Positions 3,889-23,348 of a stretch of 32,000 nucleotides of DNA are shown piece after piece. The DNA comes from Cyanobacteriota bacterium. GTDB taxonomy: Bacteria > Cyanobacteriota > Cyanobacteriia > Cyanobacteriales > Microcystaceae. How positions within the stretch are numbered: the first letter of the stretch is position 1; each line of letters opens with the position of its first letter. The notes beneath the pieces were generated by a model that saw nothing but the letters and a program-made list of their open reading frames with translations, did not search any database and was not told the origin of the DNA. The stretch is taken from the NCBI GenBank assembly GCA_046304295.1, contig JBKCES010000311.1:969-32968 (forward strand), in the 5' to 3' direction. The position numbers were made by a program, and so were the translations under genes.

Positions 3889-3983
3889 AGGATTATTCCC
3901 TCGAATTTGAATCTAAAATGTTAAGTTTTCTAAATTATCCCTCATATATAGCCTAAACTCGCTCTCTTGGGAATCGGCGCCGG

Positions 3984-6701: not shown

Positions 6702-6711
6702 ATCCCAATCT

Positions 6712-6745
6712 GTAGGGTGTGTTACACTTTGCTAACGCATCCTAC
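6712..6745 (+). terminator. stem-loop just after the EF-G stop (possible terminator or repeat hairpin)
   Basis: gtagggtgtg (6712-6721) pairs with cgcatcctac (6736-6745). This gives 10 bp including 2 G-U pairs and a 14-nt loop. No U-tract follows, so a terminator role is uncertain. Confidence 0.3.
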
Positions 6746-6825
6746 GATTTAAACCCATGTTGCGGGGACGTAACTTAAGGTTTGTCTAGAGCAAAAGTAA
6801 TGAACGCTCCCCGCCTCGACATCTC

Positions 6826-7545
6826 TTAATCTAATCCTAGTTCCCGCAAACGGCGCCGGTCTTGAAAAATTGCGTCCGGGGAATCGGCCTGCGCCACCCG
6901 TCCCCGATGCATAACGATGACCCAATCGGCCCACTTTTGCGCAAAGGGAAGGTCGTGAGTGGCCAGGAGCAGGGTGGTTCCCGCCTGGTGAATTTGCTCC
7001 AATAGTTCTCTCAGACGCCGAGTCTGGCCCGGATCGAGGTAGGCGGTGGGTTCGTCCAATAGGAGCAAGGTCGGCTCCAAAATAAAGCTATCGGCGATGG
7101 CCAGGCGCCGTTTTTGCCCCAAACTGAGGTAATTGACCGGAAAATCCGCCACTTCTTCTAGGTTAAAAGCCCTTAAGGTCGCCTCCACCCGGTGCTGGAT
7201 TTCCCCCGGTGGTAGTCCCAAATTACACAGCCCGTAGGAGAGATCCTCTTCCACAGTCCCTCCCACCAGTTGCTCGTCGGGGTTTTGAAACACTAAAGCC
7301 ACTTCTTGACGGAGACGATACAGCGCCGGCTGGTCGTAGGCCAGGGGTTGATTTTGCCAGTAAACAGCACCGGCACAGGGTCGATACAGACCGTTCGCTA
7401 GACGTAAGAGGGTGGTTTTGCCACAGCCGTTTTGGCCAATGAGGGCGTAGCGTCCACCGGCTTCGAGGCGGAGAGAAAGGCCCTCTAGCACCGGCTGGGG
7501 ATGGCCGGGATAACGGTAACTGACCGCCTCAAAGCGCATTAACAT
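6826..7545 (-). CDS. cbiO: ECF/cobalt-type ABC transporter ATP-binding protein
   Basis: Walker A GQNGCGKTT, signature LSLGQKRR, Walker B LLLLDEP. The probable start is MLMRFEAV at 7545, overlapping the cbiQ stop. The longer track ORF to 7623 is unlikely. Confidence 0.8.
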   Translation of the reverse strand: MLMRFEAVSYRYPGHPQPVLEGLSLRLEAGGRYALIGQNGCGKTTLLRLANGLYRPCAGAVYWQNQPLAYDQPALYRLRQEVALVFQNPDEQLVGGTVEEDLSYGLCNLGLPPGEIQHRVEATLRAFNLEEVADFPVNYLSLGQKRRLAIADSFILEPTLLLLDEPTAYLDPGQTRRLRELLEQIHQAGTTLLLATHDLPFAQKWADWVIVMHRGRVAQADSPDAIFQDRRRLRELGLD

Positions 7546-8345
7546 GGGCGCGCCCAGTAATACCAGCCCGTTAAACCTAACAAAAAGAAATAACCCCCCA
7601 CCGCTTCGGCGCTGTAACGCCAACTGGGTTGATGATGGCGCCGGCTCCAGAATTTAAGTTCTCCGGTGTACCCCCTAGCGGCGAGACCCAGGGAAATTTC
7701 CCGGTAGTGATTCAGGGCCCGTTGCAGAAGTTGCCCCGTTAAGAGACTCAAACTATTGAGGCCTGGGCGCCAGGCGCCGTAGCCGCAACGGGACTGCTGG
7801 GCCGTGAGCAATTCCTGCGCCGTAGCCCTGAGAACCGCAATCAATCGATACATCAGCAGAATTAATTCTGTTAGTAGCGGGGGACAACCCCAACGACTCA
7901 GAAGACGAATAATTTCCCAGAAGGGAACCGTCAGCAGAAGAAAGTAGAGACAGGAGGTGAGCGCCAGGGAGCGAAAAACAATCCCTCGACTTTGCTCCAG
8001 TCCCTGTTGGCTGAGGTAGAGATAAACAGGCCCTATCGGCGCTCCCCAGAGAACGTCGCTCCGAAAGGTCGCCAGTTGGTCGGCCCGGCCGGCGCCGATG
8101 ATCCAGGCGGGCAGTCCCAAGAGTAAAAACCCTAGGGGGAGGGAGAGGAGGCGCAGATAAATCCGAGGAGAAATTTGGGCGTATTGAACGACCCAGACAA
8201 AAAGCCAGAGGCTAATTAAAGCCTGGACGGGAATCGGCGCTCCGTAGCCCAAAAGAAAAAGCGCCGCCGCAAACCCCAGTTTATGTTCTGGGGGCAGGGA
8301 GCGCAGTCCATTCCTTTGGGCTAGGGCGTCAAGGGAATAACCCAT
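7539..8345 (-). CDS. cbiQ: ECF/cobalt transporter transmembrane (T) component
   Basis: 268-aa polytopic membrane ORF directly upstream of, and overlapping, the ATPase gene. Length and hydrophobicity pattern are CbiQ-like. Confidence 0.7.
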   Translation of the reverse strand: MGYSLDALAQRNGLRSLPPEHKLGFAAALFLLGYGAPIPVQALISLWLFVWVVQYAQISPRIYLRLLSLPLGFLLLGLPAWIIGAGRADQLATFRSDVLWGAPIGPVYLYLSQQGLEQSRGIVFRSLALTSCLYFLLLTVPFWEIIRLLSRWGCPPLLTELILLMYRLIAVLRATAQELLTAQQSRCGYGAWRPGLNSLSLLTGQLLQRALNHYREISLGLAARGYTGELKFWSRRHHQPSWRYSAEAVGGYFFLLGLTGWYYWARPC

Positions 8346-8348
8346 TAT

Positions 8349-9596
8349 CTAGAGCGCCATGCCGAGGTATTTCGCCACAGTTTGAACGTCCTTATCGCCC
8401 CGGCCGGAGGTATTAATCACAATCCGGGGATTCCCCGTCAGTTGGGGGCAGAGGGTTTCTAGGTAAGCGAAGGCGTGGGCCGTTTCCAGCGCCGGAATAA
8501 TGCCCTCCAGTTGGGAGAGTTTTTGCAGGGCGGCGATGGCTTCGGCATCGGTGACGCTGTAGTATTCCGCCCGGCCGGAGTCCTTGAGAAAACTGTGCTC
8601 GGGCCCGACGCCGGGGTAATCCAAACCGGCGCTGATGGAATGGGCTTCCGTCACCTGACCGTCCGCGTCTTGCAGTAAATAACTCATGGCGCCGTGGAGC
8701 ACGCCGGGTTTACCCATGGTTAAGGTGGCGGCGTGGTGACCGGAGGCGACGCTTTCCCCCGCGGCTTCCACCCCGATAATGCGCACCTCGGCGTCGTCGA
8801 GGAAGTCGTAGAACAGTCCCATGGCGTTGGAGCCGCCCCCCACGCAGGCCAGTAAAATATCCGGCAGACCGCCCCATTTCTCCTGACACTGGCGCCGGGT
8901 TTCCTGCCCGATGACCCGATGGAAGTCCCGCACCATCATGGGATAGGGATGGGGCCCCGCCACGGAGCCGAGAATGTAGTGGGTGGATTCCACATTGGTG
9001 ACCCAGTCCCGAATGGCCTCGGAGGTGGCGTCCTTGAGGGTGCCCGTGCCGGCGCTCACCGGTTGCACCCGAGCGCCGAGTAAATTCATGCGGAAGACGT
9101 TGAGCTTTTGGCGCTCCATGTCCTCCACCCCCATATAAATGACGCAATCCAAGCCAAAGCGGGCGCAGACCGTAGCGGTGGCTACCCCGTGTTGACCGGC
9201 GCCGGTTTCGGCGATAATCCGAGCCTTGCCCATCCGTTTGGCCAGTAAAACCTGCCCGAGGGCGTTGTTAATCTTGTGGGCGCCGGTGTGGTTGAGGTCT
9301 TCCCGCTTCAGGTAAATCTCGGGGCCGCTTCCGTCGGGGCGGGCGTAATGCTGGCTCAGGCGCTCGGCGAAATAAAGGGGGCTGGGGCGCCCCACATAAT
9401 CTTTGAGGAGGCCGTTCAATTCCGCCTGAAACGCAGGCTCGTCCTTCACCCGTCGATAGGCGTCCTCTAACTCGGCCAAGGCGGGCATCAGGGTTTCCGG
9501 GACGTATTTGCCGCCGAAGCGCCCAAAGCGCCCCAGAGCGTCGGGGTATTGACTAATGGGTCGGAGAGCGGGGGAGACAAGAGGAGTAGTGGTCAT
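8349..9596 (-). CDS. trpB: tryptophan synthase beta chain
   Basis: Hallmark motifs [11 protein letters not shown] (PLP lysine), GGGSNAMG and [11 protein letters not shown]. Confidence 0.95.
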
Positions 9597-9672
9597 AGGG
9601 GGAAAGAACGGCGACGGTCTCTGATTATAGCCTAGGCCCTAGCGGCGCTCTCAACTGGCGGCCCATTCCAGT

Positions 9673-10125
9673 CTAGAGGGTGGCGGAGCCGGGATAGTAT
9701 TTCAATTCGTCGACAATGTAGGTGACGACGGCAGGTTCCCCGGAAGGTAGGGCGATGACCTCCCAGGTCTGGTAGGCGTCCAGAACAATACGCTTACTCT
9801 TGGCATCCGGCACCGTCCAGACGCTGGCTTCCCACTTGACCACCACTTTGACGAGGGTTTTTTCCCCTTCGACGCCGATCAGTTCCACGGATTTTACTTC
9901 ATGGACTTCGTCAAAAAAGATATTGATCACTCCCGGTAGATCGTCGCCGCCCTGATACCAGGCGATAAATTTATCCATCCCTTCTAGGGTGGCTTCCGGG
10001 AAGACCATTTTCAAGCCTTCCGGGGCGAGGAGGGGGGTGATTTCTGCCACGGGAGCGTGGACATCTAGTTTTTTGTACCAACCTTCGGCAAAGGTCTGGA
10101 GTTGGGCTTGGGTAAAGGCGCTCAT
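9673..10125 (-). CDS. hypothetical protein, possibly NTF2/SnoaL-like fold
   Basis: Clean 150-aa ORF with host-like composition. The fold suggestion rests only on size and an alternating beta-rich C-terminal pattern. Confidence 0.55.
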   Translation of the reverse strand: MSAFTQAQLQTFAEGWYKKLDVHAPVAEITPLLAPEGLKMVFPEATLEGMDKFIAWYQGGDDLPGVINIFFDEVHEVKSVELIGVEGEKTLVKVVVKWEASVWTVPDAKSKRIVLDAYQTWEVIALPSGEPAVVTYIVDELKYYPGSATL

Positions 10126-10267
10126 GGGACTTTCCTCTCGTTTAGAGTAGAGAATTTTCCCTATCCTAGAAGGATTTGCCCGGAACGGCGCTGTTTGGGG
10201 GGCGGGTTCGCCCTAGGGAAGATGGTAAAATAAACCCTCATCGCTCAGTCCCCTAGGGAAACCCTCC

Positions 10268-12829
10268 ATGACCGCCCCTGCCGACCGCATCATCGCCACC
10301 GACCTCCGCAACGAAATGTCCCGCTCCTATCTGGAATACGCCATGAGCGTGATCGTGGGTCGGGCCTTGCCGGACGCTAGGGACGGGCTGAAACCGGTGC
10401 ATCGGCGCATTCTCTACGCTATGTACGAACTCGGACTGACGCCGGATCGTCCCTTTCGGAAATGTGCAAGGGTGGTGGGGGAAGTACTGGGGAAATATCA
10501 TCCCCATGGGGACACGGCGGTCTATGACGCCCTGGTGCGCATGGCTCAGGATTTTTCCATGCGGAACCCCCTGATTAACGGGCACGGCAACTTCGGCTCG
10601 GTAGATAACGACCCCCCGGCGGCCATGCGTTACACCGAATGCCGTCTGCAAACCATCGCCACTAACGGCCTTCTGCGGGATATCGAAGCCGACACGGTGG
10701 ATTTTATCGATAACTTCGACGGCTCCCAGCAGGAACCCACTGTGCTCCCGGCCCGCCTGCCCCAACTGCTCCTCAACGGCTCCTCCGGTATCGCCGTGGG
10801 GATGGCCACCAATATTCCGCCTCACAATTTAGGAGAATTGATTGATGGGACAATTGCTTTAATTCATAACCCAGAACTCACGGATTTGGAGTTGATGCGC
10901 TACATCCCCGGCCCCGACTTTCCCACCGGCGCCCAAATTCTGGGTCGGAGCGGCATCCGGGACGCCTACACCACGGGCCGCGGCTCCATTACTCTGCGAG
11001 GGGTGGCGGACATTGAAACCCTAGAGCAACGAGGGCGGCAGGATAAGGAAGCGATTATTATTACCCAACTGCCTTACCAAACCAATAAGGCGGCGCTGAT
11101 TGAGCGTATCGCTGAGTTGGTGAATGAGAAAAAAATCGAGGGGATTTCCGATATTCGGGACGAGAGCGACCGGGACGGGATGCGGATTGTCATCGAGCTG
11201 AAGCGGGACGCCTATCCCCGGGTGGTGCTGAATAATCTCTATAAACAAACGCCAATCCAAAGTAATTTCGGCGCTAATATGCTGGCCTTGGTCAATGGCG
11301 AACCCCTGACCCTAAACCTCCGGCGCTTTTTGGCGGTCTTTTTGGAGTTTCGGGTGGAGACCATCACCCGGCGGACGCAGTATGAACTGCGGAAGGCCGA
11401 AGAGCGGGATCACTTACTCCAGGGCCTGCTCATCGCGCTGGATAACCTCGACGCGGTGATTCGCCTCATTCGCGGCGCCGCCGACACGGCCACGGCTAAG
11501 GGGGAACTGGTGGAAAGTTTTGGTCTCTCGGAAGTCCAAGCCGACGCCATTCTCCAGATGCAACTGCGGCGCTTGACGGCGCTGGAGGCGGACAAGATCC
11601 AAGCCGAGCACGCCGAGCTTCAGGAGAAAATCCGAGATCTTCAGGATATTTTGGCGAAGCGGGAACGAATCGACCAAATTATCGAAGAGGAACTGACCCA
11701 ACTGAAAACCCTCCACGCCACGCCGCGCCGCACGGTGATTATTCAGGACAAGGGGGGCTTAGTGGATACGGATCTGATCGCTAACGAGCCGGCCATCATC
11801 CTCCTCACCGAGCAGGGTTATATCAAACGAATGCCCGCCAATACCTTCGAGACGCAAAATCGGGCCACCCGGGGTAAAGCCGGCGCCAAGATTAAGGAGG
11901 ACGACGGAGTAGAGCACTTCCTCTCCTGTTGCGACCACGACCGGATTCTCTTTTTCAGCGACCGGGGCGTGGTTTACGGTCTCAACGCCTACCAAATTCC
12001 GGTGGCCAGCCGCGCCGCGCGGGGGATTCCCATCGTTCAGATGCTCCCCATTCCCAAGGATGAAAAAATCACTTCTCTGGTGCGGGTGGTGGAGTTTGCC
12101 GAAGACACCTATTTTGTTATGCTCACCCGCCAGGGCTTTATCAAAAAAACGGCGCTGGCGGCGTTCCGCAGTATCCGGGCCAACGGCTTGATCGCCATTA
12201 CCCTCGAAGAGGGCGACCAACTCCGCTGGGTGCGGTTAGCCAAGGAAGAGGACAGCATTATCATCGGCTCCCGGCAGGGGATGGCCATTCATTTCAAAGC
12301 CGACGCCCAGGAACTCCGGGCCGTGGGACGCTCGGCTCGGGGGGTGAAGTCGATGAAACTCCGCAAAGCCGACGAGTTGATCAGTCTGGATATTCTGCCC
12401 AGTCAAATTGTGGCCCAAATCAGCGCCGCAGAGGATGGCCCGGAAGAGGAGGAAGAGCTGGAAATTTTGCCGGAAGGGGATAATCCCGTGCCCTGGGTTC
12501 TAGCCATCACCGCTAAAGGCTTTGGCAAACGGGTGCCGGTGACCCAATTCCGTCTTCAACACCGGGCCGGGATGGGCGTCAAAGCCATTCGTTTTAAATC
12601 CGACAGCGATAAACTGATCGCCCTGCAGGTAGTCGGCGCCGAGGATGAGTTAATGCTAGTTACCAATCGGGGTATTATTATTCGCCAAGCCGTTAAGGAT
12701 ATTTCCCCCCAGTCCCGCAACGCCACCGGCGTCCGGGTTCAACGCCTAGACGAAGACGACGCCATCGCCGCCGTGGCGCTGGTGCCCCCCTCGGCGGAAG
12801 GAGAAGAGTCCAGCGCCGATGAGGGCTAA
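10268..12829 (+). CDS. gyrA: DNA gyrase subunit A
   Basis: N-terminal motifs [24 protein letters not shown] and GKYHPHGD, an active-site region containing AAMRYTE, C-terminal beta-pinwheel repeats and an acidic tail. Confidence 0.95.
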
Positions 12830-12971
12830 GTTTTGGATCGTCCGGCGCTGTCCGCGCCCCAGTTCCTAATTTCGGCGTTAGTGGGATGATGGGTTAGCGA
12901 TGGCGTAATGGTTCGTCTCTTTTCGCTATAGTTAAGCAATCCCCTGAGCGATATAGGGCGGAAGGACTACG

Positions 12972-13292
12972 ATGGCGGAGGCGCAAAAACCCAATAAACC
13001 CCTATTTTCCCGGCATTATCTGGAGCATCGGCTCCCGGAGTGTCCCGAGTGGCGGGAGGACGGCGGCGCCGTTTTGGCGGCGCTACAGGATCTTTTCAGC
13101 CGGAAAAAAGTGCTTCTGCCGACCTTGAATGAGGCCCAGACGGAAACGGAGTTTATTCAACCGGTGCTGGAGATTTTGGGCTTTAGCGTTATTCCCCAGG
13201 TGACGACCCGCGGGCGGGGACGGGCAGAGCGCCCGGATTATGCCTTGTTTACTGATTCGGCGACGCAGAGGCTCCATTTCCCGCTAAACTAA
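12972..13292 (+). pseudogene. N-terminal fragment (106 aa) of a large type IIG / type I-like restriction enzyme (HSDR_N-like nuclease domain)
   Basis: The sequence LFSRHYLEHRLPE...NEAQTETEFIQPVLEILGF...RPDYALF matches the N-terminal nuclease module of COG1002-type R-M fusion proteins as I remember them. The ORF stops shortly after the PD motif, where such proteins normally continue for about 1000 aa. Confidence 0.6.
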
Positions 13293-13354
13293 AATTTCAT
13301 GGTCCTCTTAGGAGACCACTCTTGGTCAATTTCAGCGCAAGGGTAATTTAAATC

Positions 13355-14308
13355 GTGAATCAGTATAAGACTATAGATTTATTCGCCGGTATTGGCGGTA
13401 TAAGACTAGGATTTGAGAAATACGGATGCCGAACTGTTTTTGCTTCGGAGTGGGACAAGGCGGCTCAAACCATGTATGAAGCAAATTTTGGGGAGAAACC
13501 CTTTGGGGATATTAACTTAATTGCGCCCAAAGAAATTCCTGACCATGATATTTTACTTGCTGGTTTTCCCTGCCAACCCTTTAGCATTGCGGGCAAAGGC
13601 CTTGGTTTTGCAGATACCCGCGGCACTCTCTTTTTTAATATTGAAACTATTTTAGCCGCAAAACGACCCCACGCCTTTCTATTAGAAAATGTCCGGCGCT
13701 TGACGACTCACAATCATGGACAAACGTTTACCGTGATTCTAGAAAAGTTAACAAATTTGGGTTATACTGTCTATCATCAGATTTTAAACTCCTTGGACTT
13801 TGGTGTTCCTCAAAAGCGAGAACGAATTTATATCGTCGGTTTTCAGGAAAAGCTAGATTTTAACTTTCCTAAACCCCCAGGATACTATAAACCGTTAAAA
13901 GAAGTTTTAGAACCAGATGATAAAGTTCCTAAACAATACTTTCTGTCGCCAAGCCTAAAAGAAAAGCGTCTAAAATCTGTCAAAGGGACTCCTCCTTTCC
14001 CCTCTATATGGCATGAAAACATCGGAGGAAATATTTCTGCACTTCCTTATTCCTGTGCGTTGAGAGCGGGCGGCAGTTATAATTACCTCGTTGTCAATGG
14101 TATCCGTCGTTTGACAGATCGAGAGATGCTTAGACTCCAAGGATTCCCTGAAGATTTTAGAATCCCTATCCCTTATTCTCAACTCCGCAAAGTTGCCGGA
14201 AATTCGGTTACTGTTCCTGTGATTGAAGCTATCGCTCAACAGATGATAACAGTCTTGGTAAATCGTTGTTCTTCTCCTGATTACCCTATCCAACTACGTT
14301 TAGCATAA
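13355..14308 (+). CDS. DNA (cytosine-5) methyltransferase, HhaI/HaeII-like (predicted GCGC-core specificity), copy 1
   Basis: All the Dcm-family motifs I checked are present: I DLFAGIGG, IV GFPCQPFS, VI ENV, VIII QKRER, X GNSVTVPV. The N-terminal half (SEWDKAAQTMYEANFGEKPFGDI...IPDHDILLAGFPCQPFSIAGKGLGFADTRGTLFFNI) closely resembles M.HhaI as I remember it. GTG start. The gene is AT-rich relative to the host. Confidence 0.9.
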   Translation: MNQYKTIDLFAGIGGIRLGFEKYGCRTVFASEWDKAAQTMYEANFGEKPFGDINLIAPKEIPDHDILLAGFPCQPFSIAGKGLGFADTRGTLFFNIETILAAKRPHAFLLENVRRLTTHNHGQTFTVILEKLTNLGYTVYHQILNSLDFGVPQKRERIYIVGFQEKLDFNFPKPPGYYKPLKEVLEPDDKVPKQYFLSPSLKEKRLKSVKGTPPFPSIWHENIGGNISALPYSCALRAGGSYNYLVVNGIRRLTDREMLRLQGFPEDFRIPIPYSQLRKVAGNSVTVPVIEAIAQQMITVLVNRCSSPDYPIQLRLA

Positions 14309-14312
14309 TTAC

Positions 14313-14325
14313 ATAAACTCTATGA
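14313..14325 (+). repeat. 13-nt direct repeat ataaactctatga, left copy (overlaps the endonuclease ATG)
   Basis: An exact copy recurs at 15406-15418. The two copies bracket the endonuclease ORF. Confidence 0.7.
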
Positions 14326-15374
14326 AAGCTAAAAAAGCTCTTGACACTGTTATTAATAAAGCCAGAGTCCATTTTTATAAACCTATTCAAATAGCAGAGA
14401 TTCTACATCGAGATCGTGTCTATGGTGATATAGATCTTTCTGATTTGTCGAGTTATAAAAATTTGTCTAAGAAATGGCGAGATATTATTTGTAATCAATT
14501 CTTAGGCCGTACATCAACATCATCAGCTCGCTATCAAGATGATCTTTTTAATGAGAATGCTGTCCCGCCTAACTTGTTAAATGAGTTAGGAGAAGAAAAC
14601 CGGAATAAAAATGGAATCGTTGAAGCCTATATTTACAGGAAATTTGAGAGTAAATTATCACAAATGACGATGGGTCTGGGTTATTGTTCTGAGCATAGTA
14701 AAGAAAATTTTGATGTGCAAGAGTTTCTAAGCTTGTTTTGGCATGAGCCTGGACTAAAAAGAAGCATAGATAAAATTTATGAAATTATTGTTTTTTCGCT
14801 ATTTTCATCTCTCATTGACAGCTTAGATATTTTTGTTGAAATCTCTATTGATAACAACAAAGCTCCTATTATAGAGGAATTTAAAGAATTTGCTCATAAG
14901 GTAATCTATCTATCACCGATGGAAGATAGCCTAAAATTTAAAGCAAAAGTTCATAGAGTTGGCGTAACTAATGCTGCGGATAGAGGAATTGATATGTGGA
15001 CAAGTTTTGGTCTTACTATTCAAGTTAAACATGTATCTTTAACTGAAGATAAAGCTCAAGATATTGTTTCATCAGTTTCTTCTGATAGAATTGTTATTGT
15101 TTGTAAAGATACAGAAGAAAAGATTATCTTGTCTATATTAAATCAAGTAGGTTGGAAATCAAAAATACAAAGTATCATCACTGAAACAGAGCTAATCGGT
15201 TGGTATGAAAAAGCACTCAGAGGTAAATATGCAAATATTATTGGTGATCAGCTACTTCAAACTATCAACGATGAAATCAAACTTGAATTCCCTATAACTG
15301 ACGATTCTGAATTCACCTCCTTTCTGGAAGAGAGGGGATACACAAATCTATCTGATTCTTTATGGGAAGCTTAA
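14322..15374 (+). CDS. type II restriction endonuclease, HaeII-family-like (predicted RGCGCY)
   Basis: 350-aa ORF starting 13 nt after the methyltransferase stop. The N-terminus (ALDTVINKARVHFYKPIQIAEILHRDR) and the size match my recollection of the HaeII family (Pfam RE_HaeII). A candidate PD-(D/E)xK-like core is DRGIDMW...TIQVKH. GC is about 30% in the lines I sampled, and I found no GCGC tetramer in the gene. Confidence 0.6.
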   Translation: MKAKKALDTVINKARVHFYKPIQIAEILHRDRVYGDIDLSDLSSYKNLSKKWRDIICNQFLGRTSTSSARYQDDLFNENAVPPNLLNELGEENRNKNGIVEAYIYRKFESKLSQMTMGLGYCSEHSKENFDVQEFLSLFWHEPGLKRSIDKIYEIIVFSLFSSLIDSLDIFVEISIDNNKAPIIEEFKEFAHKVIYLSPMEDSLKFKAKVHRVGVTNAADRGIDMWTSFGLTIQVKHVSLTEDKAQDIVSSVSSDRIVIVCKDTEEKIILSILNQVGWKSKIQSIITETELIGWYEKALRGKYANIIGDQLLQTINDEIKLEFPITDDSEFTSFLEERGYTNLSDSLWEA

Positions 15375-15380
15375 TTCTGT

Positions 15381-15485
15381 GATCAACTCATCGATCAAAT
15401 TGTTTATAAACTCTATGATTTAACCCCAGAAGAAATCGCCATCGTCGAAGGCCGGGAATCGGCGCTGGTGCTAGGTAAACTTTAG
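15381..15485 (+). pseudogene. C-terminal remnant A of the type IIG-like gene
   Basis: Translates as DQLIDQIVYKLYDLTPEEIAIVEGRESALVLGKL*. The IDxxVYxLYxLTxEEIxIVE tail is characteristic of COG1002-type R-M fusion proteins. Coordinates 15413-15471 recur at 17434-17492. Confidence 0.55.
15406..15418 (+). repeat. 13-nt direct repeat ataaactctatga, right copy
   Basis: Exact match to 14313-14325. It lies inside remnant A, 32 nt after the endonuclease stop. Confidence 0.7.
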
Positions 15486-15898
15486 GGTTCAAACCAATTT
15501 TCCAAAGTAAGATTATCAAACTCCGAAAAATCTTGGATATTACGAGTTACTAAAATTAGGTCATTGACAGCGGCCGTACTTGCAATTTGTCCGTCTATAA
15601 AAGCTGGTGTTTTCCCTTTTTGAGATAAGCGGACTCTTTCCCTAGCGTGCCATCTCGCCGCCTCTAAATTATAATCAAAAACCGGTAAGCTCAAAATAGA
15701 ATCTTCTACGTAACGCGATAAAACCTCTCGCTTTCTTGACTGCGGCAATCTCCAGCAACCATAGAGAATTTCTGAAAGGACAACACTACTAGTGCCGATC
15801 TCAAAACGGTACTGATTTAAATAACTCAAAACCTTCTGATTCGGATTAGGACGACACGGCTCGGATAAAATATTTGTATCCAGCAAGAATCTAATCAT
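15482..15898 (-). CDS. vapC: PIN-domain toxin (VapC family)
   Basis: 138-aa ORF starting MIRFLLDTNILSE with a conserved acidic Asp, plus later acidic residues typical of PIN domains. It overlaps the upstream small ORF by 4 nt (ATGA). Confidence 0.85.
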   Translation of the reverse strand: MIRFLLDTNILSEPCRPNPNQKVLSYLNQYRFEIGTSSVVLSEILYGCWRLPQSRKREVLSRYVEDSILSLPVFDYNLEAARWHARERVRLSQKGKTPAFIDGQIASTAAVNDLILVTRNIQDFSEFDNLTLENWFEP

Positions 15899-16140
15899 TG
15901 AATTTCCACATCTCTCCCTGAGCTTCGATCTCGTAAATCTGCAAAATCTTCATCAGTAAAAATCAGTACTTCCTCTTCAATCACCTGTCGAAGTTGTAAG
16001 ACCCCTTGCCAAAAAGCGTCCCCCGTTTTTTCAGCGGGACTTGAATCAGCCCAACGTTTCTGAAGCCGAGAAAACAAGAGCAATTGGTCTGTAGAGGACA
16101 AATCATCTAACTCCTGAATAATTTCCTGTAAAGTCATCAC
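15895..16140 (-). CDS. putative antitoxin partner of VapC
   Basis: 81-aa acidic ORF, translationally coupled to the PIN gene in the standard upstream antitoxin position. I did not recognise the family. Confidence 0.6.
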   Translation of the reverse strand: MMTLQEIIQELDDLSSTDQLLLFSRLQKRWADSSPAEKTGDAFWQGVLQLRQVIEEEVLIFTDEDFADLRDRSSGRDVEIQ

Positions 16141-16234
16141 TCCGTCTCCAAAGGAAAACCGACCTTCTCTAATTATACTATAATCTCCTCGTCAAGCGCC
16201 GCGCTCTCCCACAGATTAAAGAAGGAGAAATTTA

Positions 16235-16459
16235 ATGGCAGAAGTAAACGTTTATTATGACTCGATGGGAAATACTCTAACCATCTGGTTTGGGGAACGA
16301 TCCTCAGAATATCTCTGCGAAGAAACAGGAGACGAAGTGATTTTGATGAAAAATCAACAAGGGGAGGTCATCGGCTTTGAAAAAATCAACTATACGATTA
16401 CCGAGAATACCAACCTAAAAATCTCCCTCGAAACCATGCCCTTCGGCGCCTTAACCTGA
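16235..16459 (+). CDS. DUF2283-family small protein
   Basis: 74 aa. YYDSMGNTLTIWFGE...VILMKNQQGEVIGFEKINY matches the DUF2283 pattern. AAGGAG Shine-Dalgarno at about 16221-16226, and a TATAAT box at 16179-16184. Confidence 0.7.
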   Translation: MAEVNVYYDSMGNTLTIWFGERSSEYLCEETGDEVILMKNQQGEVIGFEKINYTITENTNLKISLETMPFGALT

Positions 16460-16495
16460 AAATAGGATGATCCATCACACAGTTAAGCCATCGCC

Positions 16496-17413
16496 ATGAG
16501 TCACTATAAAACCATAGATTTATTCGCCGGTATTGGCGGCATACGGCTCGGCTTCGAGAAATACAGGTGTCAAACCGTCTTTGCCTCCGAGTGGGATCAA
16601 GCCGCTCAAACCATCTATGAAGCCAATTTTGGGGAGAGACCCTTTGGCGATATTAACCTCATAGCGCCGTCAGAAATTCCCGACCATGACATTTTACTAG
16701 CCGGTTTTCCCTGTCAACCCTTTAGTCTCGCCGGGAAAGGTCTTGGTTTTGCCGATACTCGGGGAACTTTATTTTTTAACATTGAAAAAATTTTAGACAC
16801 CAAACGCCCCCAAGCTTTTTTACTTGAAAATGTCCGGCGCTTGAAAACCCATAATCAAGGACAAACCTTTAGCGTTATTCTCGACCGATTAACAAATTTG
16901 GGCTATACCGTCTATTATCAAATTTTAAACTCCCTCGACTTTGGCGTTCCCCAAAAGCGAGAACGAATTTATATTGTCGGTTTTCAAGAAAAGCTAGATT
17001 TTAACTTTCCTCAACCCCTAGGATACTACAAACCCCTAACAGAAGTTTTAGAACCAGACGCTCAAGTCCCTCAGTGGTATTTCCTCTCGCCGCATCTTCA
17101 AGAAAAGCGCCGAAAATATCTGAAAGAAACGCCGCCTTTTCCCTCCATTTGGCATGAAAATATTAGCGGCAATGTTTCCGCCTTACCCTACTCCTGCGCC
17201 CTCAGAGCGGGCGGTAGTTATAATTATCTAATTGTTAACGGTGTCCGGCGCTTAACGGAGCGAGAAATGCTCAGACTACAAGGATTCCCGGAAGATTTTC
17301 GTATTCCCGTTCCCTACTCCCAAGTTCGTAAAGTCGCCGGTAATTCCGTCACCGTTCCCGTGATTGAAGCCATCGCTCAAGCCATGATGACGGCGCTGGG
17401 AAGCTTAATCTGA
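16496..17413 (+). CDS. DNA (cytosine-5) methyltransferase, copy 2 (orphan paralogue with no adjacent endonuclease)
   Basis: 305 aa, colinear with copy 1 and without indels over about 298 aa. I estimate about 85-87% amino-acid identity by eye. All the catalytic motifs I checked are intact. The gene is GC-richer than copy 1 and carries five RGCGCY sites against one in copy 1. Confidence 0.9.
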   Translation: MSHYKTIDLFAGIGGIRLGFEKYRCQTVFASEWDQAAQTIYEANFGERPFGDINLIAPSEIPDHDILLAGFPCQPFSLAGKGLGFADTRGTLFFNIEKILDTKRPQAFLLENVRRLKTHNQGQTFSVILDRLTNLGYTVYYQILNSLDFGVPQKRERIYIVGFQEKLDFNFPQPLGYYKPLTEVLEPDAQVPQWYFLSPHLQEKRRKYLKETPPFPSIWHENISGNVSALPYSCALRAGGSYNYLIVNGVRRLTEREMLRLQGFPEDFRIPVPYSQVRKVAGNSVTVPVIEAIAQAMMTALGSLI

Positions 17414-17433
17414 AATATTTTAAACGAGATACC

Positions 17434-17492
17434 CTATGATTTAACCCCAGAAGCAATTGCCATCATCGAAGGCCGGAAATCGGCGCTGGCGC
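17434..17492 (+). pseudogene. C-terminal remnant B of the type IIG-like gene (duplicate of 15413-15471)
   Basis: 54/59 nt identical to remnant A. Translates as YDLTPEAIAIIEGRKSALA. It follows the copy-2 methyltransferase stop after a 20-nt spacer. Confidence 0.55.
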
Positions 17493-17671
17493 AATCACGC
17501 CGAGGACAGTATCCCGTTATACAATTACGATTTGGCGTTAACTCAGAAAAGCTCATCCAGTAAGGGTTCTGGCTCCCCTTCTCCCAGAATTGGATTGCTT
17601 TTACCACCTATTTGATGCTTTTGTCCTTGCGCTGACGAGATTCTTTAAAAAAGCTGACCGCAAGCTGGTAA

Positions 17672-18388
17672 TCAGACGGAGAGAAACTCTTGAATAATCT
17701 CCTGACTGAGATCCTGAGTTTGACCGCTGGCAACAATGCCGCCCTTCTGCATGGCGTAATAGCGATCCGCCTGGCGCACAAAGTGGAGGTGTTGCTCCAC
17801 CAGTAGAACGGAAATTTGGGTTTCTCGAATGATGCGTTTCACCACCGCTTCGATTTCTAAAATAATTGAGGGTTGAATCCCTTCCGTGGGTTCGTCCAGG
17901 AGTAATAATTGCGGTTTTCCCACCAGTGCCCTAGCGATAGCCAATTGCTGTTGCTGACCGCCACTCAGGTCGCCTCCCCGGCGGGCAAGCATGGTTTTGA
18001 GCACAGGAAACAGCTCGAAAATTTCTGAAGGAATCCGTTCCTGACCCCGGCGCCCCTGGGGCATCGCCTCAAAACCCAGTAATAAATTTTCCGCCACCGT
18101 CAAACGGGGAATAATGTCCCGACCCTGGGGCACGTAGCCGATACCCGAACGAACCCGGCGGTCTGTGGTTTGGTTGCGTAAATCCCGCCCCTGGAAAAAG
18201 ACCGCACCCTGACGGGGCGCCAGCAGACCCATGATGGTTTTGAGAAGGGTCGTTTTGCCAACGCCGTTGCGCCCGATTAAACAAACCATTTCCCCCGGTT
18301 GGACGCTGAGATCCACCTCCCGGAGAATATGGCTTTCGCCGTAGTAAACATCGAGACCGCTAACTTGCAACATGAGGTCGGGATTCAT
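17672..18388 (-). CDS. urtE: urea ABC transporter ATP-binding protein UrtE
   Basis: Walker A GRNGVGKTT, signature LSGGQQQ, Walker B LLLLDEP. It is the last gene of a urtABCDE-ordered cluster. Confidence 0.9.
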   Translation of the reverse strand: MNPDLMLQVSGLDVYYGESHILREVDLSVQPGEMVCLIGRNGVGKTTLLKTIMGLLAPRQGAVFFQGRDLRNQTTDRRVRSGIGYVPQGRDIIPRLTVAENLLLGFEAMPQGRRGQERIPSEIFELFPVLKTMLARRGGDLSGGQQQQLAIARALVGKPQLLLLDEPTEGIQPSIILEIEAVVKRIIRETQISVLLVEQHLHFVRQADRYYAMQKGGIVASGQTQDLSQEIIQEFLSV

Positions 18389-19131
18389 TCCGGCGCCGCT
18401 CCTAAATAGACTTCAATAACTCGGGGGTCGTTTTGCACTTCGTCCATGGAACCTTCGCAGAGGACGGTTCCCTGATGAAGCACGGTGACCTGGCGGGCGA
18501 TTTGGCGGACAAACTCCATATCATGTTCGATGACGATAATGGAATGGCTTTCCGCCAGCGCCAATAAGAGATTGCCCACATTTTCCGTTTCCTCGTCCGT
18601 TAACCCCGCCACCGGCTCGTCCACCAGCAGTAAATCCGGCGATTGAATCACCAACATGCCGATTTCTAGGCGCTGTTTTTCGCCGTGGGATAAAAAGGTG
18701 GCTTTGAGGTCGGCTTTGGCCTCTAAACCAATGGTTTCCAACAAACTAGCCACATGGCGACTTTCCGTGGCGGAGGGAGCGTTAAAAAGGGTGGCAAAGA
18801 CACTTTTACGTTTATTGGCCACCAAATCGAGATTTTCCCGGACGGATAAATTGAGGTAGATCCGGGGGGTTTGGAATTTGCGGCCAATGCCCAAGCGAGC
18901 AATTTGGTATTCCGCTAGGGGACGCAGGTCTTTGCCTTTAAAGAGAACCCGACCCTGGGTGGGTTTAACCTTGCCGGTGATCACGTCTAAAAAGGTGGTT
19001 TTACCGGCGCCGTTGGGGCCGATAATGACCCGCAACTCCCCGGTTTCCATGGCGAAATTAAGCTGGTTCAGCGCCTTAAAGCCGTCAAAATCCACCGTCA
19101 GATTTTCAATCTCTAAAATCGAATTACTCAT
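18385..19131 (-). CDS. urtD: urea ABC transporter ATP-binding protein UrtD
   Basis: Walker A GPNGAGKTT, signature LSHGEKQRLE. The probable start is MSNSILEIENL at 19131, overlapping the urtC stop. The track ORF start at 19269 is unlikely. Confidence 0.9.
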   Translation of the reverse strand: MSNSILEIENLTVDFDGFKALNQLNFAMETGELRVIIGPNGAGKTTFLDVITGKVKPTQGRVLFKGKDLRPLAEYQIARLGIGRKFQTPRIYLNLSVRENLDLVANKRKSVFATLFNAPSATESRHVASLLETIGLEAKADLKATFLSHGEKQRLEIGMLVIQSPDLLLVDEPVAGLTDEETENVGNLLLALAESHSIIVIEHDMEFVRQIARQVTVLHQGTVLCEGSMDEVQNDPRVIEVYLGAAPE

Positions 19132-20254
19132 GCTCCAATTGCTCCCGTTCCTGTTGAACCTCGGGATTGACCTCCAGCGCCGGATAGGTGAGGAGTTTCG
19201 GGCTTCGTTTAGCGGCGAAGAGTTGGGCCAGTCCGCCCAAAATACCGTTAGGAAGGACAGTGACCACAATTAAGAATAACGCGCCCTGAAAGAAGAGCCA
19301 GATTTCGGGAAAACTTTCGCTTAGGAAACTTTGCCCCAAACGGACTAAGAGCGTCCCTAAAATCGCGCCGACTAAGGTGGCTCGACCCCCCACCGCGACC
19401 CAAATGACAATTTCAATAGAAAAGGCCACCTCCATAATGCTGGGGGTAATAATGCCCGTTTGCACTGTGTAAAGCGCTCCCGCCACCCCAGCGATGGCGC
19501 CGGAAAGGGCGAAGATAAAGACCTTAAAGCCCGTGGGGTCATAGCCGGAAAAGCGCACTCGGGTTTCGTCGTCCCGGATGGCTAGGAGGAGGCGCCCAAA
19601 GCGTCCGGTGGTGAGCCAGCGGCAGAGGAGATAAACCAACAGTAAGGAGAGGAGGGAAAGCTCGTAAAAGGCCACTTGCACCCGATTATCGCTGACCAAT
19701 AGACCGAAAATGGTTTGGGTATCGGTTTTTAGTCCGTTGGTGCCGTTAATTAGCTTTTGCTGACCGTTAAAAAAGTTATAAAACACCAACAGCGCCGCCT
19801 GGGTCAGGATGGAAAAATAGACCCCCTTAATGCGGTTACGGAAGATGAGATAGCCTAGTAAACCCGCCACAATGCCCGGAACTAGGATTAAGCTAATAAT
19901 GGTCACCGGCAGGGAATGGAAGGGTTGCCAGAGCCAGGGCAGGGACTGGACGCCGTAGAGGGTGAAAAACTCCGGCAGTTGCCCCTCCGGTAATTGCAGG
20001 TTTAAATACATCGCCAGGGCGTAACCCCCGAGCGCAAAGAAAATCCCGTGGCCGAGACTGAGTAAACCCGTATAACCCCAAATTAAATCCACCCCCACCG
20101 CCACAATGGCGAGGGAAACAAAGCGCCCCAACAGCCGCAGGCGAAAGGCGGGGATCAGCGCCGGTAAAACTAAGCCCCCAATAACTAAAAGGGCGACAAT
20201 AATGCCGATTTCCCACAACCTTCGGCGCTGTTTTTCCTGAGCAGTTTGATTCAT
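19124..20254 (-). CDS. urtC: urea ABC transporter permease UrtC
   Basis: Branched-chain-amino-acid-type (LivM-like) permease in the urt cluster. Confidence 0.9.
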   Translation of the reverse strand: MNQTAQEKQRRRLWEIGIIVALLVIGGLVLPALIPAFRLRLLGRFVSLAIVAVGVDLIWGYTGLLSLGHGIFFALGGYALAMYLNLQLPEGQLPEFFTLYGVQSLPWLWQPFHSLPVTIISLILVPGIVAGLLGYLIFRNRIKGVYFSILTQAALLVFYNFFNGQQKLINGTNGLKTDTQTIFGLLVSDNRVQVAFYELSLLSLLLVYLLCRWLTTGRFGRLLLAIRDDETRVRFSGYDPTGFKVFIFALSGAIAGVAGALYTVQTGIITPSIMEVAFSIEIVIWVAVGGRATLVGAILGTLLVRLGQSFLSESFPEIWLFFQGALFLIVVTVLPNGILGGLAQLFAAKRSPKLLTYPALEVNPEVQQEREQLEHE

Positions 20255-20296
20255 AGTTGACCTACGAGGATGTTGATCTAGGCTTAATTAGTCCCC

Positions 20297-21454
20297 CTAT
20301 AGTTCCGCGGTGCGACCCTTGGGCGGAAACAGACCCGCGGGTTTAATTTGTAAAAAGGCGATAATCAGGGCGAAGATCACCACTTTAGCCATACTCGTGG
20401 TGGCGAAAAACTCAAAAAAGCTTCCCAAACCTGAGCCGAGGGAGAGCGCCAAACTGCTACTACCCACAATAATCAGGTAATTGAAAACCCCAATGGCCAG
20501 CGCCGCCACGATAGTTCCCAAGAGATTGCCGACGCCCCCCACCACCACCACCATAAAGGTGTCCACAATGTAGTTTTGGCCGGTGTTGGGGCCCACGGAG
20601 CCGAGAAAGCTGATGCCGCAACCGGCGATGCCCGCCAACCCCGACCCAAGGGCGAAGGTAAGGGCATCCACTTGAGCCGTGGGAATTCCTAAGCAGGCGC
20701 TCATGGTTCGATTCTGAGTCACGGCCCGAATCCGTAGCCCCCAACTGGAGCGGTTCAAAAACCAATAGGTTCCGAAAACGCAGAGGACAGTTAGGGCGAT
20801 GATAAATAGACGGGTGTAGGGCAGTTGGAAATCTCCGATGGGCAAACCGCCCCGCAACCATGCCGGTGCCGTGACGTCCACATTACGGGCGCTGAACCAG
20901 GGTTTCACCCAAAAATCCTGTTTGGTCTGAAACAGCAAAACCCCCAACGCCGTCGCCAGTGCTGCGGAGAGGGGTAAAAGAACCCACAGGGCTTTCTGTT
21001 GGATTTGGGCCCAATCCAAACGGCGCTGAATCAGCCAAAGACCGCCGAACAACAGCAGGGCGAAGACGACTAACGCCAGAGCCAAGAGCGTGTTGACGCT
21101 CCGAACCAACTGTTGCAGGATCAAGCTCACTCCCCAGGTGGCCAACAAAGTTTCCAAGGGGCGCCCGTAGAGGAAACGAATCACCCCCCGCTCCAGCGCC
21201 AATCCCACCAGCCCGGAAACCAGAAAAGCGAGGGGCAGAGCGGCGAAAATATAGAGGCTAAACCAAGGCTCTCCCAAGGGTTTAAAAAGATTCGGCACCA
21301 CAAAGGTGGTGTAGGCGCCAAGCATGATCAGTTCGCCGTGGGCGAGGTTAATCACCCCCATCAGGCCAAAAACGATGGCCAGACCTAGGGCGGCCATCAG
21401 GAGCACCGCCCCAATACTCAAACCGTCAAAGACGCCGCTCAGTAAAATAGACAT
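20297..21454 (-). CDS. urtB: urea ABC transporter permease UrtB
   Basis: LivH-like permease (INLAHGELIMLGAYT) in the urt cluster. Confidence 0.9.
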   Translation of the reverse strand: MSILLSGVFDGLSIGAVLLMAALGLAIVFGLMGVINLAHGELIMLGAYTTFVVPNLFKPLGEPWFSLYIFAALPLAFLVSGLVGLALERGVIRFLYGRPLETLLATWGVSLILQQLVRSVNTLLALALVVFALLLFGGLWLIQRRLDWAQIQQKALWVLLPLSAALATALGVLLFQTKQDFWVKPWFSARNVDVTAPAWLRGGLPIGDFQLPYTRLFIIALTVLCVFGTYWFLNRSSWGLRIRAVTQNRTMSACLGIPTAQVDALTFALGSGLAGIAGCGISFLGSVGPNTGQNYIVDTFMVVVVGGVGNLLGTIVAALAIGVFNYLIIVGSSSLALSLGSGLGSFFEFFATTSMAKVVIFALIIAFLQIKPAGLFPPKGRTAEL

Positions 21455-21514
21455 TTAAATACAGTTATCAGTTACTCAGTTATCAGCGGTTAAACTGGGT
21501 CTTCCGGTTCCCAT

Positions 21515-21582
21515 CCTTGGAGGGGTTAGGGGTGGGTTAGCGCTCAGGGATAGAACCCACCCCCCTGCCCCCTCCCAAGAGG
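21515..21582. repeat. imperfect GC-rich inverted repeat (hairpin element) in the urtA-urtB spacer
   Basis: ccttggaggggttaggggtgggtt (21515-21538) is nearly complementary to aacccacccccctgccccctcccaagagg (21554-21582). Confidence 0.45.
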
Positions 21583-21636
21583 GGGAGTTCAACTACGACA
21601 GAAATCAGGAGCATGTAGCTTTCCCTCGATGGGTTT

Positions 21637-21708
21637 TATCCCCCTAAATCCCCCTTTGCAAGGGGGACTTTGAACTGAGCTTGTCGAAGTAGGGGTTAGG
21701 GAGGATTC
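21637..21708. repeat. small dispersed hairpin repeat, same family as 3651-3726
   Basis: The core ccccctaaatccccctttgcaagggggactttgaa (21640-21674) matches 3654-3688 at 33/35. A partner arm aggggttagggaggat lies downstream. Confidence 0.55.
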
Positions 21709-21758
21709 TAACGCTTGTATACGCGACAGATCCCAAGTTGAGGAATGGGTTCTCAGAC

Positions 21759-23096
21759 CTAGGAAAACTGCGGCCCCTTAAACTTGCCGGGGGTTTCCGG
21801 CGGTTGAATGTCCGTCCGGGTCCAGTCGCAGGTGAAGCCCTTGGTTTCAGGGACAAACTGGTTCCAGGGAACGGGAATCACGGGGCCCTCGGTGGCCCAA
21901 ACGATGTTGAAGAGACCGTCGTCTCTGACCTCCCCCATCCGCACCGTCTTAGAAATATGGTGGTTGGGGTACATCTTCACCGGCCCTCCCGGCGACGCAA
22001 ACTCCTGACCGATGGCCGCGGCCCGGACGGCGTCTAGATCGTCCGCTGTCCCCGCTTTTTCCACGGCTTGCTTCCAGAGATAAACCATGATGTAGGCCGC
22101 TTCCATGGGGTCGCTGGTCACCCGGTCGGCGCCGTATTCTTTCTGGAACGCGGCTACAAATTTGGCGTTTTCCGGGGTGTCCACGGTTTGGAAATAGTTC
22201 CAAGCGGCGTATTGCCCCAGTAGGTACTCTTTACCGATTTGTCGGACTTCCTCTTCGGCGATACTCACAGACATCACCGGGTATTTATCCGGCTTGAGAC
22301 CCGCGGCTTGCAGTTGCTTAAAGAAAGCCACGTTGCTGTCGCCGTTGAGGCTGTTAAAAATCACGCCGCCATTGGGAAGTGCCTGCTTAATTTTGGTGAT
22401 GATGGGAGTCACTTCCGTATTACCGAGGGGTAAATAGTCTTCCCCGACAGTTTTGCCGCCTTTAGCTTTAAGTTGCTCTTTAATAATGGTGTTGGCCGTG
22501 CGGGGAAAAACGTAGTCGGAGCCGACTAAAAAGAACTCCTTACCCTTGTTTTCCAGCAACCAAGTCACCGCTGGCTCAATCTGCTGGTTCGGCGCGGCGC
22601 CGGTATAGAAAATATTGCGGGAACATTCCTGCCCTTCATACTGGACGGGATACCACAACATGTGGTTTTTCTCTTCAAAAACCGGCAATACCGCCTTGCG
22701 ACTGGCGGAGGTCCAGCACCCAAAGACCGTCGCTACTTTATCCTGATCAATCAATTTTCGGGCTTTTTCCGCAAAAGTTGGCCAATCCGAGGCGGCGTCT
22801 TCCACCACCGCTTCCACTTGTTTACCCAGTACTCCCCCGGCGGCGTTGATTTCTTTAATGGCCAACTTTTCAGCTTCCACCACCGTGGTTTCGCTAATGG
22901 CCATGGTGCCGCTGAGGGAATGTAAAATCCCCACCTTAATCGTGTCTCCAGACGCAGCGCCGGTGGGGGAAGCCGTTCCGCCTTCCGGCGTCGTTTCCGG
23001 CGCCGGATTATTTTGACAAGCTTTCAGGAGCAGACTCGTTCCCAAAGTCGCCCCGCCGTAAAGCAAAAACTTTCTTCTTCCTAATCCTTGCATCAT
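21759..23096 (-). CDS. urtA: urea ABC transporter substrate-binding protein UrtA
   Basis: 445 aa with a signal or lipoprotein-like N-terminus (LLKAC) and a LivK-type periplasmic binding fold. It is the first gene of the urt cluster. Confidence 0.9.
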
Positions 23097-23175
23097 AGAC
23101 TTTAAGTCACCTCTAGGGGGTTGTAGAGTAAAAAATAACCAGCGTGAAGAGTGAGTCGAAACCGCTAAGAGTTTG

Positions 23176-23218
23176 ATACTAAGTCTAGGGTCGGGGATAA
23201 AATGTTATGTACGCTACA
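23176..23218 (-). promoter_or_regulatory. NtcA-type activated promoter of urtA
   Basis: The reverse strand reads TGTAGCGTACATAACA (23218-23203), i.e. GTA-N8-AAC, one mismatch from GTA-N8-TAC. It is followed by exactly 22 nt and then TAGTAT (23181-23176), which fits the TAN3T -10 box. This is the canonical NtcA class II geometry, about 80 nt upstream of the urtA ATG. Confidence 0.5.
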
Positions 23219-23348
23219 AAATCGGCGTTCATGCCCCCTCGGAAGCCTAGTTTTGTCAGTAAAATCACCATAGATAGGCGGGAAATGGCTATACGTTAGA
23301 GTCGCCACCTAACGGAGAGCAGTTCTAGAGCTTTAAGCGCCGGGGGGA

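Follow-up and report, generated by a model that had tools for sequence, protein, structure and literature searches.

A HaeII-like restriction-modification pair beside an orphan methylase in a Synechocystis-related cyanobacterium rich in RGCGCY sites

Genes of the locus

We analysed a 32,000-nucleotide stretch of a cyanobacterial genome of the family Microcystaceae (GenBank assembly GCA_046304295.1, contig JBKCES010000311.1, positions 969 to 32,968 of the forward strand), referred to below as the window. It encodes a 5-methylcytosine (m5C) DNA methyltransferase, M1, directly followed by a HaeII-family restriction endonuclease, R, and further downstream a paralogue of M1, here called M2, without an endonuclease partner. 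The predicted target of this restriction-modification (R-M) pair, RGCGCY, is dispersed over the window at a density far above expectation (Table 1). The HaeII system of Haemophilus aegyptius cleaves RGCGC^Y and consists of an endonuclease of Pfam family PF09554 and an m5C methylase.

Table 1. Features of the window (position 1 is its first nucleotide).
Feature	Position	Strand	Evidence or remark
Dispersed RGCGCY / CGGCGCCG motif	1..32000		counts; 182 sites, ~1 per 155 bp in core DNA
Low-GC island with M1, R, vapBC, DUF2283 and M2	12900..17600 (4.7 kb)		34-46% GC vs ~56% in the host
Type IIG R-M gene remnant, N-terminal, 106 aa, at left island edge	12972..13292	+	PADLOC REase_MTase_IIG, E 2e-6, profile 41-101 of 1250
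M1, HaeII/HhaI-type m5C DNA methyltransferase with endonuclease partner	13355..14308	+	PF00145, M.HhaI match
R, type II restriction endonuclease of the HaeII family, uninterrupted	14322..15374	+	Pfam RE_HaeII (PF09554), full length
62-nt repeat, copy A, 36 nt past the R stop codon	15410..15471	+	90% identical to copy B
VapC (PIN) toxin (15482-15898) and putative antitoxin (15895-16140), between R and M2	15482..16140	-	Pfam PIN, E 1.6e-10
DUF2283 small protein upstream of M2	16235..16459	+	Pfam PF10049, E 1.8e-7
M2, orphan M1 paralogue, 305 aa	16496..17413	+	profile matches, 86% amino-acid identity to M1
62-nt repeat, copy B, 17 nt past the M2 stop codon	17431..17492	+	

The first-pass annotation had read M1 as a complete m5C methyltransferase of the M.HhaI/M.HaeII group and the 350-amino-acid open reading frame (ORF) behind it as a HaeII-like endonuclease, and both gene calls were correct. 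M1 matches the C5 cytosine methyltransferase profiles over its full length (Pfam PF00145, E 1.1e-93; TIGR00675, E 5e-102), and in a comparison with the PDB its top solved relative was M.HhaI (E 1.7e-67, residues 5-296 aligned). R is matched by the Pfam RE_HaeII model from end to end (residues 3-340 on model positions 1-338 of 338; E 2.6e-149, 497.5 bits with a cut-off of 25) and by the PADLOC profile REase_II (E 2.6e-150), and its reading frame contains no stops or frameshifts. A protein identical to R except for three additional N-terminal residues is annotated by NCBI as 'HaeII family restriction endonuclease'; exact-sequence look-ups of this 353-amino-acid version and of M2 found no record. 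The nearest non-self homologues of R share 66-68% identity with it. As in the HaeII system, a full-length endonuclease is directly preceded by an m5C methylase in the same orientation, the stop codon of M1 lying 13 nt upstream of R on the same strand. Spirulina major (L003) has a methylase beside the endonuclease as well, and so do 74 of 80 genome loci.

M2 lies 2.2 kb downstream, matches PF00145 at E 3.6e-91 and has no endonuclease gene behind it. The catalytic motifs FPCQPFS and LLENV are readable in the translations of both methylases. M1 is collinear with M.HhaI (target GCGC; PDB 1MHT and others) over the catalytic and target-recognition domains. However, its recognition-domain sequence is clearly distinct, and M1 sides with the methylases linked to HaeII-family endonucleases; the host loci of this group deplete RGCGCY only and not all GCGC. 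M1 is 85-87% identical to the M2 clade and 79-82% identical to endonuclease-linked methylases of other phyla, from which the M2 clade is further removed (75-78%). Of the 131 columns with 96% or higher conservation in 74 endonuclease-linked methylases, M1 deviates at none, M2 at one and the M2 orthologues described below at one at most. Moreover, the recognition-domain core PPFPSIWHENIxGNxSALPYSCALRAGGSYNYL is kept in M1 and M2.

Abundance and form of the RGCGCY motif

The annotation had counted about 180 RGCGCY sites in 32 kb, a 3.5-4-fold excess, and our figures agree closely, with 182 sites in the whole window. Core DNA was taken as window positions 1-12900 and 17601-30900 (26.2 kb), with the low-GC island excluded. 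It contains 169 sites, against 39.5 expected from base composition and 44.7 from a first-order Markov model; the window has an observed/expected ratio (O/E) of 4.3. Dinucleotide bias was rejected as the cause, since shuffles of core DNA that preserve dinucleotides yielded 45.4±6.5 sites and never more than 62. A codon or amino-acid artefact was rejected likewise. The 20 core genes hold 161 sites where 55.9±6.1 remain after synonymous codons are shuffled among them, a procedure that preserves protein sequence and codon usage (z = 17), and the sites fall in all codon frames (64/48/49). No core gene is without sites, intergenic DNA has them as well, and the over-representation is even across the 20 core genes (26 kb) and recurs in three short contigs carrying M2 orthologues. 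The presence of the excess in all frames, together with its survival of the synonymous shuffle, points to a process acting at the level of DNA.

A closer inspection of the individual hexamers qualifies the earlier description of an iterated motif built on RGCGCY. It holds for GGCGCC and for GGCGCT/AGCGCC, which are about 5-fold over-represented, GGCGCC (O/E 5.05) being the top GC-rich hexamer palindrome; it does not hold for AGCGCT, which is as frequent as expected. A strong preference for C...G on either side of the hexamer gives the consensus CGGCGCCG, of which there are 25 copies in core DNA compared with 1.2 in shuffles, or 954 per Mb. GCGC in flanks other than R...Y is mildly to strongly depleted, and the strong cases all contain CGCG (O/E 0.26).

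HIP1 (GCGATCGC), the highly iterated palindrome (HIP) of Synechocystis and most cyanobacteria, is associated with the orphan methylases DmtA and DmtC (GATC, CGATCG). The arrangement in the window resembles it in that the predicted sites of an orphan methylase lie within a hyper-abundant palindrome reaching one or two bases further. The sequence is another one, however, and HIP1 and CGATCG are nearly absent (0 and 1 occurrences, respectively, in 32 kb). A periodic spacing of the HIP1 kind was considered and rejected, as the spacing of RGCGCY sites is close to exponential (coefficient of variation 0.94).

Several further observations concern the sequence composition of the window. Other palindromes are avoided in core DNA (GTAC, O/E 0.13; CGCG, 0.26; ACGT, 0.31; TGCA, 0.39; CGATCG, 0 against 7.7 expected), suggesting that R-M systems with these targets are or once were present, and AAATTT is 7-fold over-represented there. 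The MutS2/Smr gene (28157-30529), a recombination/repair gene, carries 23 RGCGCY sites; its 9.7 sites per kb are among the highest densities in the window, probably by coincidence. The segment 31100-32000, which follows a tadA-like deaminase gene, has a GC content of ~40%, no ORF longer than 58 amino acids and no RGCGCY site, and may mark where another foreign island starts.

Relatives of the host, the endonuclease and M2

The window includes psbY, and its GyrA is 85% identical to that of Synechocystis sp. LKSZ1 and 81-82% identical to that of PCC 6803, which together identify a Synechocystis-like host from a HIP1-rich group. An uncultured relative (87% GyrA identity) has the classic GGCGATCGCC at 9 copies per 11 kb and a single RGCGCY site where 11 are expected. 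The closest cultured relative, LKSZ1 (AP031572.1, positions 1192362-1214938), has neither motif, with no HIP1 in 22.6 kb. Its commonest 8-mers are GGCCCTGG/CCAGGGCC, found at some gyrA positions that align with GGCGCTG sites of the window; these may be another alternate motif or a mere Ala-Leu codon-pair effect. The loss of CGATCG from the window parallels the HIP1-loss scenario of Elhai (2015). Beside psbY, ARAGORN reported a tRNA-SeC (anticodon TCA, 3668-3746, + strand), unusual for a cyanobacterium and maybe a false positive.

To place the RGCGCY excess among other HaeII-like loci, 185,579 species genomes were scanned by endonuclease alignment. A relative is encoded in 495 of them, the best match to R having 66% identity. 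The 61 other loci retrieved with a length of 8 kb or more have a median RGCGCY O/E of 0.10, and 28 of these lack the site altogether, so the window, with its O/E of 4.3, is an outlier, and the annotation had rightly called the excess the opposite of the usual depletion. A host about 4-fold enriched in the target, along with an extra orphan methylase paralogue, is also what distinguishes this locus from the HaeII system. When hexamers were pooled over 79 other loci (1.08 Mb), AGCGCC, AGCGCT, GGCGCC and GGCGCT alone were depleted (O/E 0.34-0.35), the remaining 12 NGCGCN hexamers having O/E values of 0.98-2.54. This RGCGCY-only depletion is independent evidence that the HaeII-like family as a whole targets RGCGCY. 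Together with the identity or near-identity of the recognition-domain columns of M1 and M2 to those of the family, it speaks against the earlier proposal that the true specificity may differ.

Two further cyanobacteria, Cronbergia sp. UHCC 0137 and Dolichospermum sp. LEGE 00240, carry a HaeII-family endonuclease gene and have an RGCGCY O/E of 4-5. The endonuclease match is full length in the former and ends at residue 335 of 350 in the latter. We rejected both as parallels to the window, because their sites are AGCGCT copies in intergenic tandem repeats of ~50 bp (…GAGCGATAGCGCAAGCGCTGAC…) and therefore reflect a different phenomenon; HIP1 is still abundant in both. Site avoidance as a predictor of specificity calls for some caution, being strong in the HaeII family (O/E 0.34, RGCGCY only) and invertible in cyanobacteria.

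Orthologues of M2 with 92-94% identity were found in other metagenomes, each without an adjacent endonuclease and in differing contexts, next to rpmE-rpsI-rplM in one and lpxA in others. Their flanks are rich in RGCGCY (24 sites against 4.5 expected, 12 against 2.1 and 8 against 2.0); two of the three contigs contain CGGCGCCG, and none contains HIP1. Judging by these flanks, the excess accompanies M2 orthologues even without a neighbouring R. A metagenome scan for further M2-clade loci returned only methylases of at most 77% identity. M2 is under purifying selection as an orphan, the ratio of non-synonymous to synonymous divergence (pN/pS) being 0.15-0.17 at a pS of 0.22. It contains 5 RGCGCY sites in 918 bp, which is the density of the host. 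All five are common to its orthologues and four are absent from M1 (for example, M1 has CGTCGT where M2 has CGGCGC, both encoding Arg-Arg), so these sites were gained in the ancestor of the M2 clade. The sole RGCGCY site of M1 is the one that it has in common with M2.

GC content at third codon positions (GC3) rises from R (0.23) through M1 (0.34) and M2 (0.44) to the host genes (0.59-0.70). With one RGCGCY site in M1, none in R and a foreign composition in both, the M1-R pair is younger than the motif. Taken together, these data point to M2 as the resident of the lineage and to M1-R as the newcomer. Moreover, contig L090, from another sample, carries M1-R and the 62-nt segment at 98.6% identity to the window, the identity ending at copy A. 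There R is directly followed by the DUF2283 gene, only 92.3% identical to its counterpart in the window. The difference between the two values indicates a discrete R-M cassette that spread after its surroundings had diverged.

Other parts of the island bear on its assembly. The type IIG remnant, just after gyrA, has a host-like GC3 (0.66) and three RGCGCY sites; the island appears to have replaced the remainder of that gene, and such a remnant at its edge points to a hotspot for defence genes. The vapBC segment (window positions 15472-16214) is missing from the otherwise collinear L090 and is therefore a separate insertion or deletion event. The 62-nt repeat hints that the M2 cassette is a former methylase-endonuclease cassette that has lost its endonuclease, or that the two cassettes recombined. 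Past M2, at 17431-17563, lies a startless ORF remnant (…YDLTPEAIAIIEGRKSALAQSRRGQYPVIQLRFGVNSEKLIQ*) that opens with the same repeat that also trails R. No homology around the repeat was found in the contigs with M2 orthologues, and a promoter and terminator scan of the island gave no more hits than chance.

Proposed origin of the motif and tolerance of the pair

Alternate HIPs have been described in three cyanobacteria in which HIP1 is lost and another GC-rich palindrome occurs at ~1000-2000 copies per Mb together with cognate methylases (Elhai 2015, Life 5:921, PMC4390886). The motifs are GGCGCC in Calothrix PCC 7103, GCsGC in Cyanothece PCC 7822 and rCCGGy in Oscillatoria PCC 10802; every one has cognate methylases, with two copies in Calothrix PCC 7103 and Cyanothece PCC 7822 (Elhai 2015, PMC4390886). 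The motif was proposed to arise through a methylation-directed repair ratchet, against a background in which target sites are usually deficient irrespective of the presence of an endonuclease, and no recognisable GCGC-type methylase was reported from 97 cyanobacterial genomes (Elhai 2015, PMC4390886). Our own literature search for a link between RGCGCY and cyanobacteria found no paper.

The window resembles these cases in several respects: a cyanobacterial host of a HIP1-rich clade lacks HIP1, a GC-rich palindrome occurs at about 1000 copies per Mb, methylases with the motif as their predicted target come in two copies, as they do in Calothrix and Cyanothece, and the degenerate site is enriched mostly in its G...C forms. 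It differs in the motif octamer and the methylase family, both new here, and in the intact cognate endonuclease beside one of the methylases. A further difference is that the sequence of events can be deduced here from orphan orthologues in other assemblies.

We therefore favour, with moderate confidence, the reading that CGGCGCCG is the consensus of a new alternate HIP tied to the orphan methylase M2, and that M1-R is a later arrival, tolerated because the chromosome was already methylated. The sequence of events would be as follows. A Synechocystis-related host would have lost HIP1 and would now carry an alternate palindrome, decaying to GGCGCT/AGCGCC, that lies inside the predicted recognition sequence of a resident orphan HaeII-type methylase, M2. 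As in the alternate-HIP cyanobacteria of Elhai, a methylase recognising the motif would accompany its genome-wide accumulation. M1-R, apparently functional, would have entered later by horizontal transfer, into a hotspot for defence genes beside M2. All RGCGCY sites being already methylated by M2, the establishment of M1-R would need no purging of sites, and the presence of two methylases would make R harmless to the chromosome and unable to act as an addiction module. If M2 and the motif preceded M1-R, the paradox of a site excess next to an uninterrupted endonuclease most likely dissolves. Among the earlier suggestions, a chromosomal role of methylation exploited by the R-M system comes closest to the evidence, with the amendment that the causal partner would be the orphan M2 rather than the R-M pair.

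Within this reading we infer that M1 and M2 methylate RGCGCY, that R is expressed and active, and that methylation is causally linked to the accumulation of the motif. As to the generator, Bhagwat and McClelland reportedly showed in 1992 that Vsr very-short-patch repair in E. coli affects how often oligonucleotides occur around Dcm sites, and this is a known route by which an m5C methylase raises the frequency of its own site. Vsr-type T:G repair is not supported for the window, on three grounds. No Vsr domain was found among the island ORFs, the part of the genome covered by that search; RGTGCY/RGCACY, the products of deamination, show no depletion (O/E 0.88-1.18); and in gyrA many of the changes that create a site are third-position C>G transversions, a few changes even altering amino acids. 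Accumulation would instead be through a site-creating repair bias or selection rather than simple T:G correction, and the substitution pattern fits either a ratchet of the type proposed by Elhai, favouring any mutation that completes a site, or selection on the motif.

Several points weigh against this reading. AGCGCT is an RGCGCY site and is nonetheless unenriched (16 sites on both strands against 15.5 expected). The accumulating sequence is thus narrower than the methylase target and at the same time extends past the hexamer, and with the C...G flanks this implies that something beyond the methylase target helps to define the motif. Moreover, orphan and endonuclease-linked methylases of the M1/M2 type at non-cyanobacterial metagenome loci, which serve as a negative control, are never accompanied by enrichment (maximum O/E 1.7), so the methylase alone is insufficient and a partner process specific to cyanobacteria is required. 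The specificity assigned to M1 and M2 is a prediction by family association. M2 could be a mobile gene as well rather than a long-standing resident, considering its GC3 of 0.44 against ~0.65 in the host and the differing contexts of its orthologues. The comparison covers 32 kb of the source genome and a few short related contigs, those with M2 orthologues being 1-3.4 kb long and from hosts without taxonomic placement. Lastly, R is more diverged than its partner M1 (R-minus-M identity difference -11, against -5.5±5.3), and its substitution N228S adjoins the putative catalytic D...QxK region; both would fit some relaxed constraint.

This last point leads to the alternative that the endonuclease is silent, attenuated or inactive, leaving effectively two methylases and a decaying R gene, and no real conflict with the abundance of sites. 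We consider this unlikely, although it is compatible with the explanation of the motif through M2. The greater divergence of R would agree with it, as would the weak selection for R-M balance to be expected where M2 is present. We compared R with columns conserved to 96% or more in the 74 other genomes of a 75-genome set. R deviates at five of them (K46, K111, I184, S228, V238), which places it within the top three of the 75 genomes (maximum in any genome 6), whilst M1 has no such deviation; N228S and L238V lie near the conserved D220-D224...Q234-K236 block. A figure of 13 conserved positions at which R deviates, grouped around the catalytic block and obtained from the top 116 hits of R, was rejected once the less biased 75-genome set had reduced it to these five. 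Against inactivity, R is uninterrupted and matched end to end by its Pfam family, and four of the five deviations are conservative. In comparison with the 98.6%-identical variant on L090, the pN/pS of R is 0.30 rather than ~1, although on 15 substitutions only (7 synonymous and 8 non-synonymous), and the cassette is conserved at 98.6-100% across three independent metagenomes. These data would fit a functional gene under slightly relaxed constraint.

Rather less probable, in our estimation, is that the motif has nothing to do with M1 or M2, and that another methylase elsewhere in the genome (e.g. one specific for GGCGCC), a Chi-like or uptake-like signal, or GC-rich codon-pair drift has produced it, the overlap with RGCGCY being incidental. 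The behaviour of AGCGCT and the consensus octamer CGGCGCCG, which is both wider and narrower than RGCGCY, could be read in this way, as could the lack of enrichment around methylases of the M1/M2 type elsewhere and the origin of sites by all kinds of substitution, C>G transversions included. However, at least four independent assemblies combine an M2-clade orthologue with the excess, M2 is under purifying selection as an orphan, and the excess outlasts both the codon and the dinucleotide controls. In addition, GCGC outside R...Y flanks is unenriched, and coincidence is made unlikely by the cognate methylase that accompanies every alternate HIP (Elhai 2015, PMC4390886).

We regard it as very improbable that the motif owes its origin or upkeep to M1-R, or that the pair works as an extreme addiction module in which thousands of breaks could occur, as had also been suggested, even though target and motif coincide and both genes are intact. 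The excess occurs as well beside M2 orthologues that stand alone, the pair is foreign in composition, almost siteless and hence younger than the motif, and other hosts of the HaeII family deplete the site rather than accumulate it. Moreover, M2 lies outside the cassette and should keep sites methylated after loss of M1-R, rescuing such cells and defeating post-segregational killing. Finally, a drift of R, at most 68% identical to any other endonuclease, to a different or narrower specificity, e.g. one sparing the abundant GGCGCY, would suit its long branch relative to M1 and the status of AGCGCT as the sole RGCGCY form left to be limited, but we give it hardly any credence, as family members at a similar mutual distance (mean 68% identity) have the RGCGCY-only footprint in common, invariant residues other than N228 are unchanged and AGCGCT is at expectation rather than depleted.

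The origin and role of HIP1-type repeats have been debated for some 30 years. If the link to M2 is correct, CGGCGCCG would be a fourth alternate HIP, following three that each came from a single genome, with another motif and another methylase family. It would also bring comparators: a close relative that keeps HIP1, assemblies with the orphan methylase only, and a co-resident intact endonuclease of the same predicted specificity. These make it testable whether methylation drives the motif and at what pace, the sites gained by M2 serving as a clock, and whether prior methylation by an orphan lets R-M systems invade without a purge of sites. More broadly, and only tentatively, acquisition of an orphan m5C methylase may suffice, in a cyanobacterial repair background, to re-programme oligonucleotide content genome-wide. 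Within the divergence between organisms of ~85-87% GyrA identity, HIP1 would have been erased and CGGCGCCG written at ~1 per kb into every gene, at times at the cost of amino-acid changes, and M2 would record the process, having gained sites at host density before its clade diversified. A genome marked in this way may then be a safe harbour for matching R-M cassettes, which would in turn bar exchange between lineages with different HIPs.

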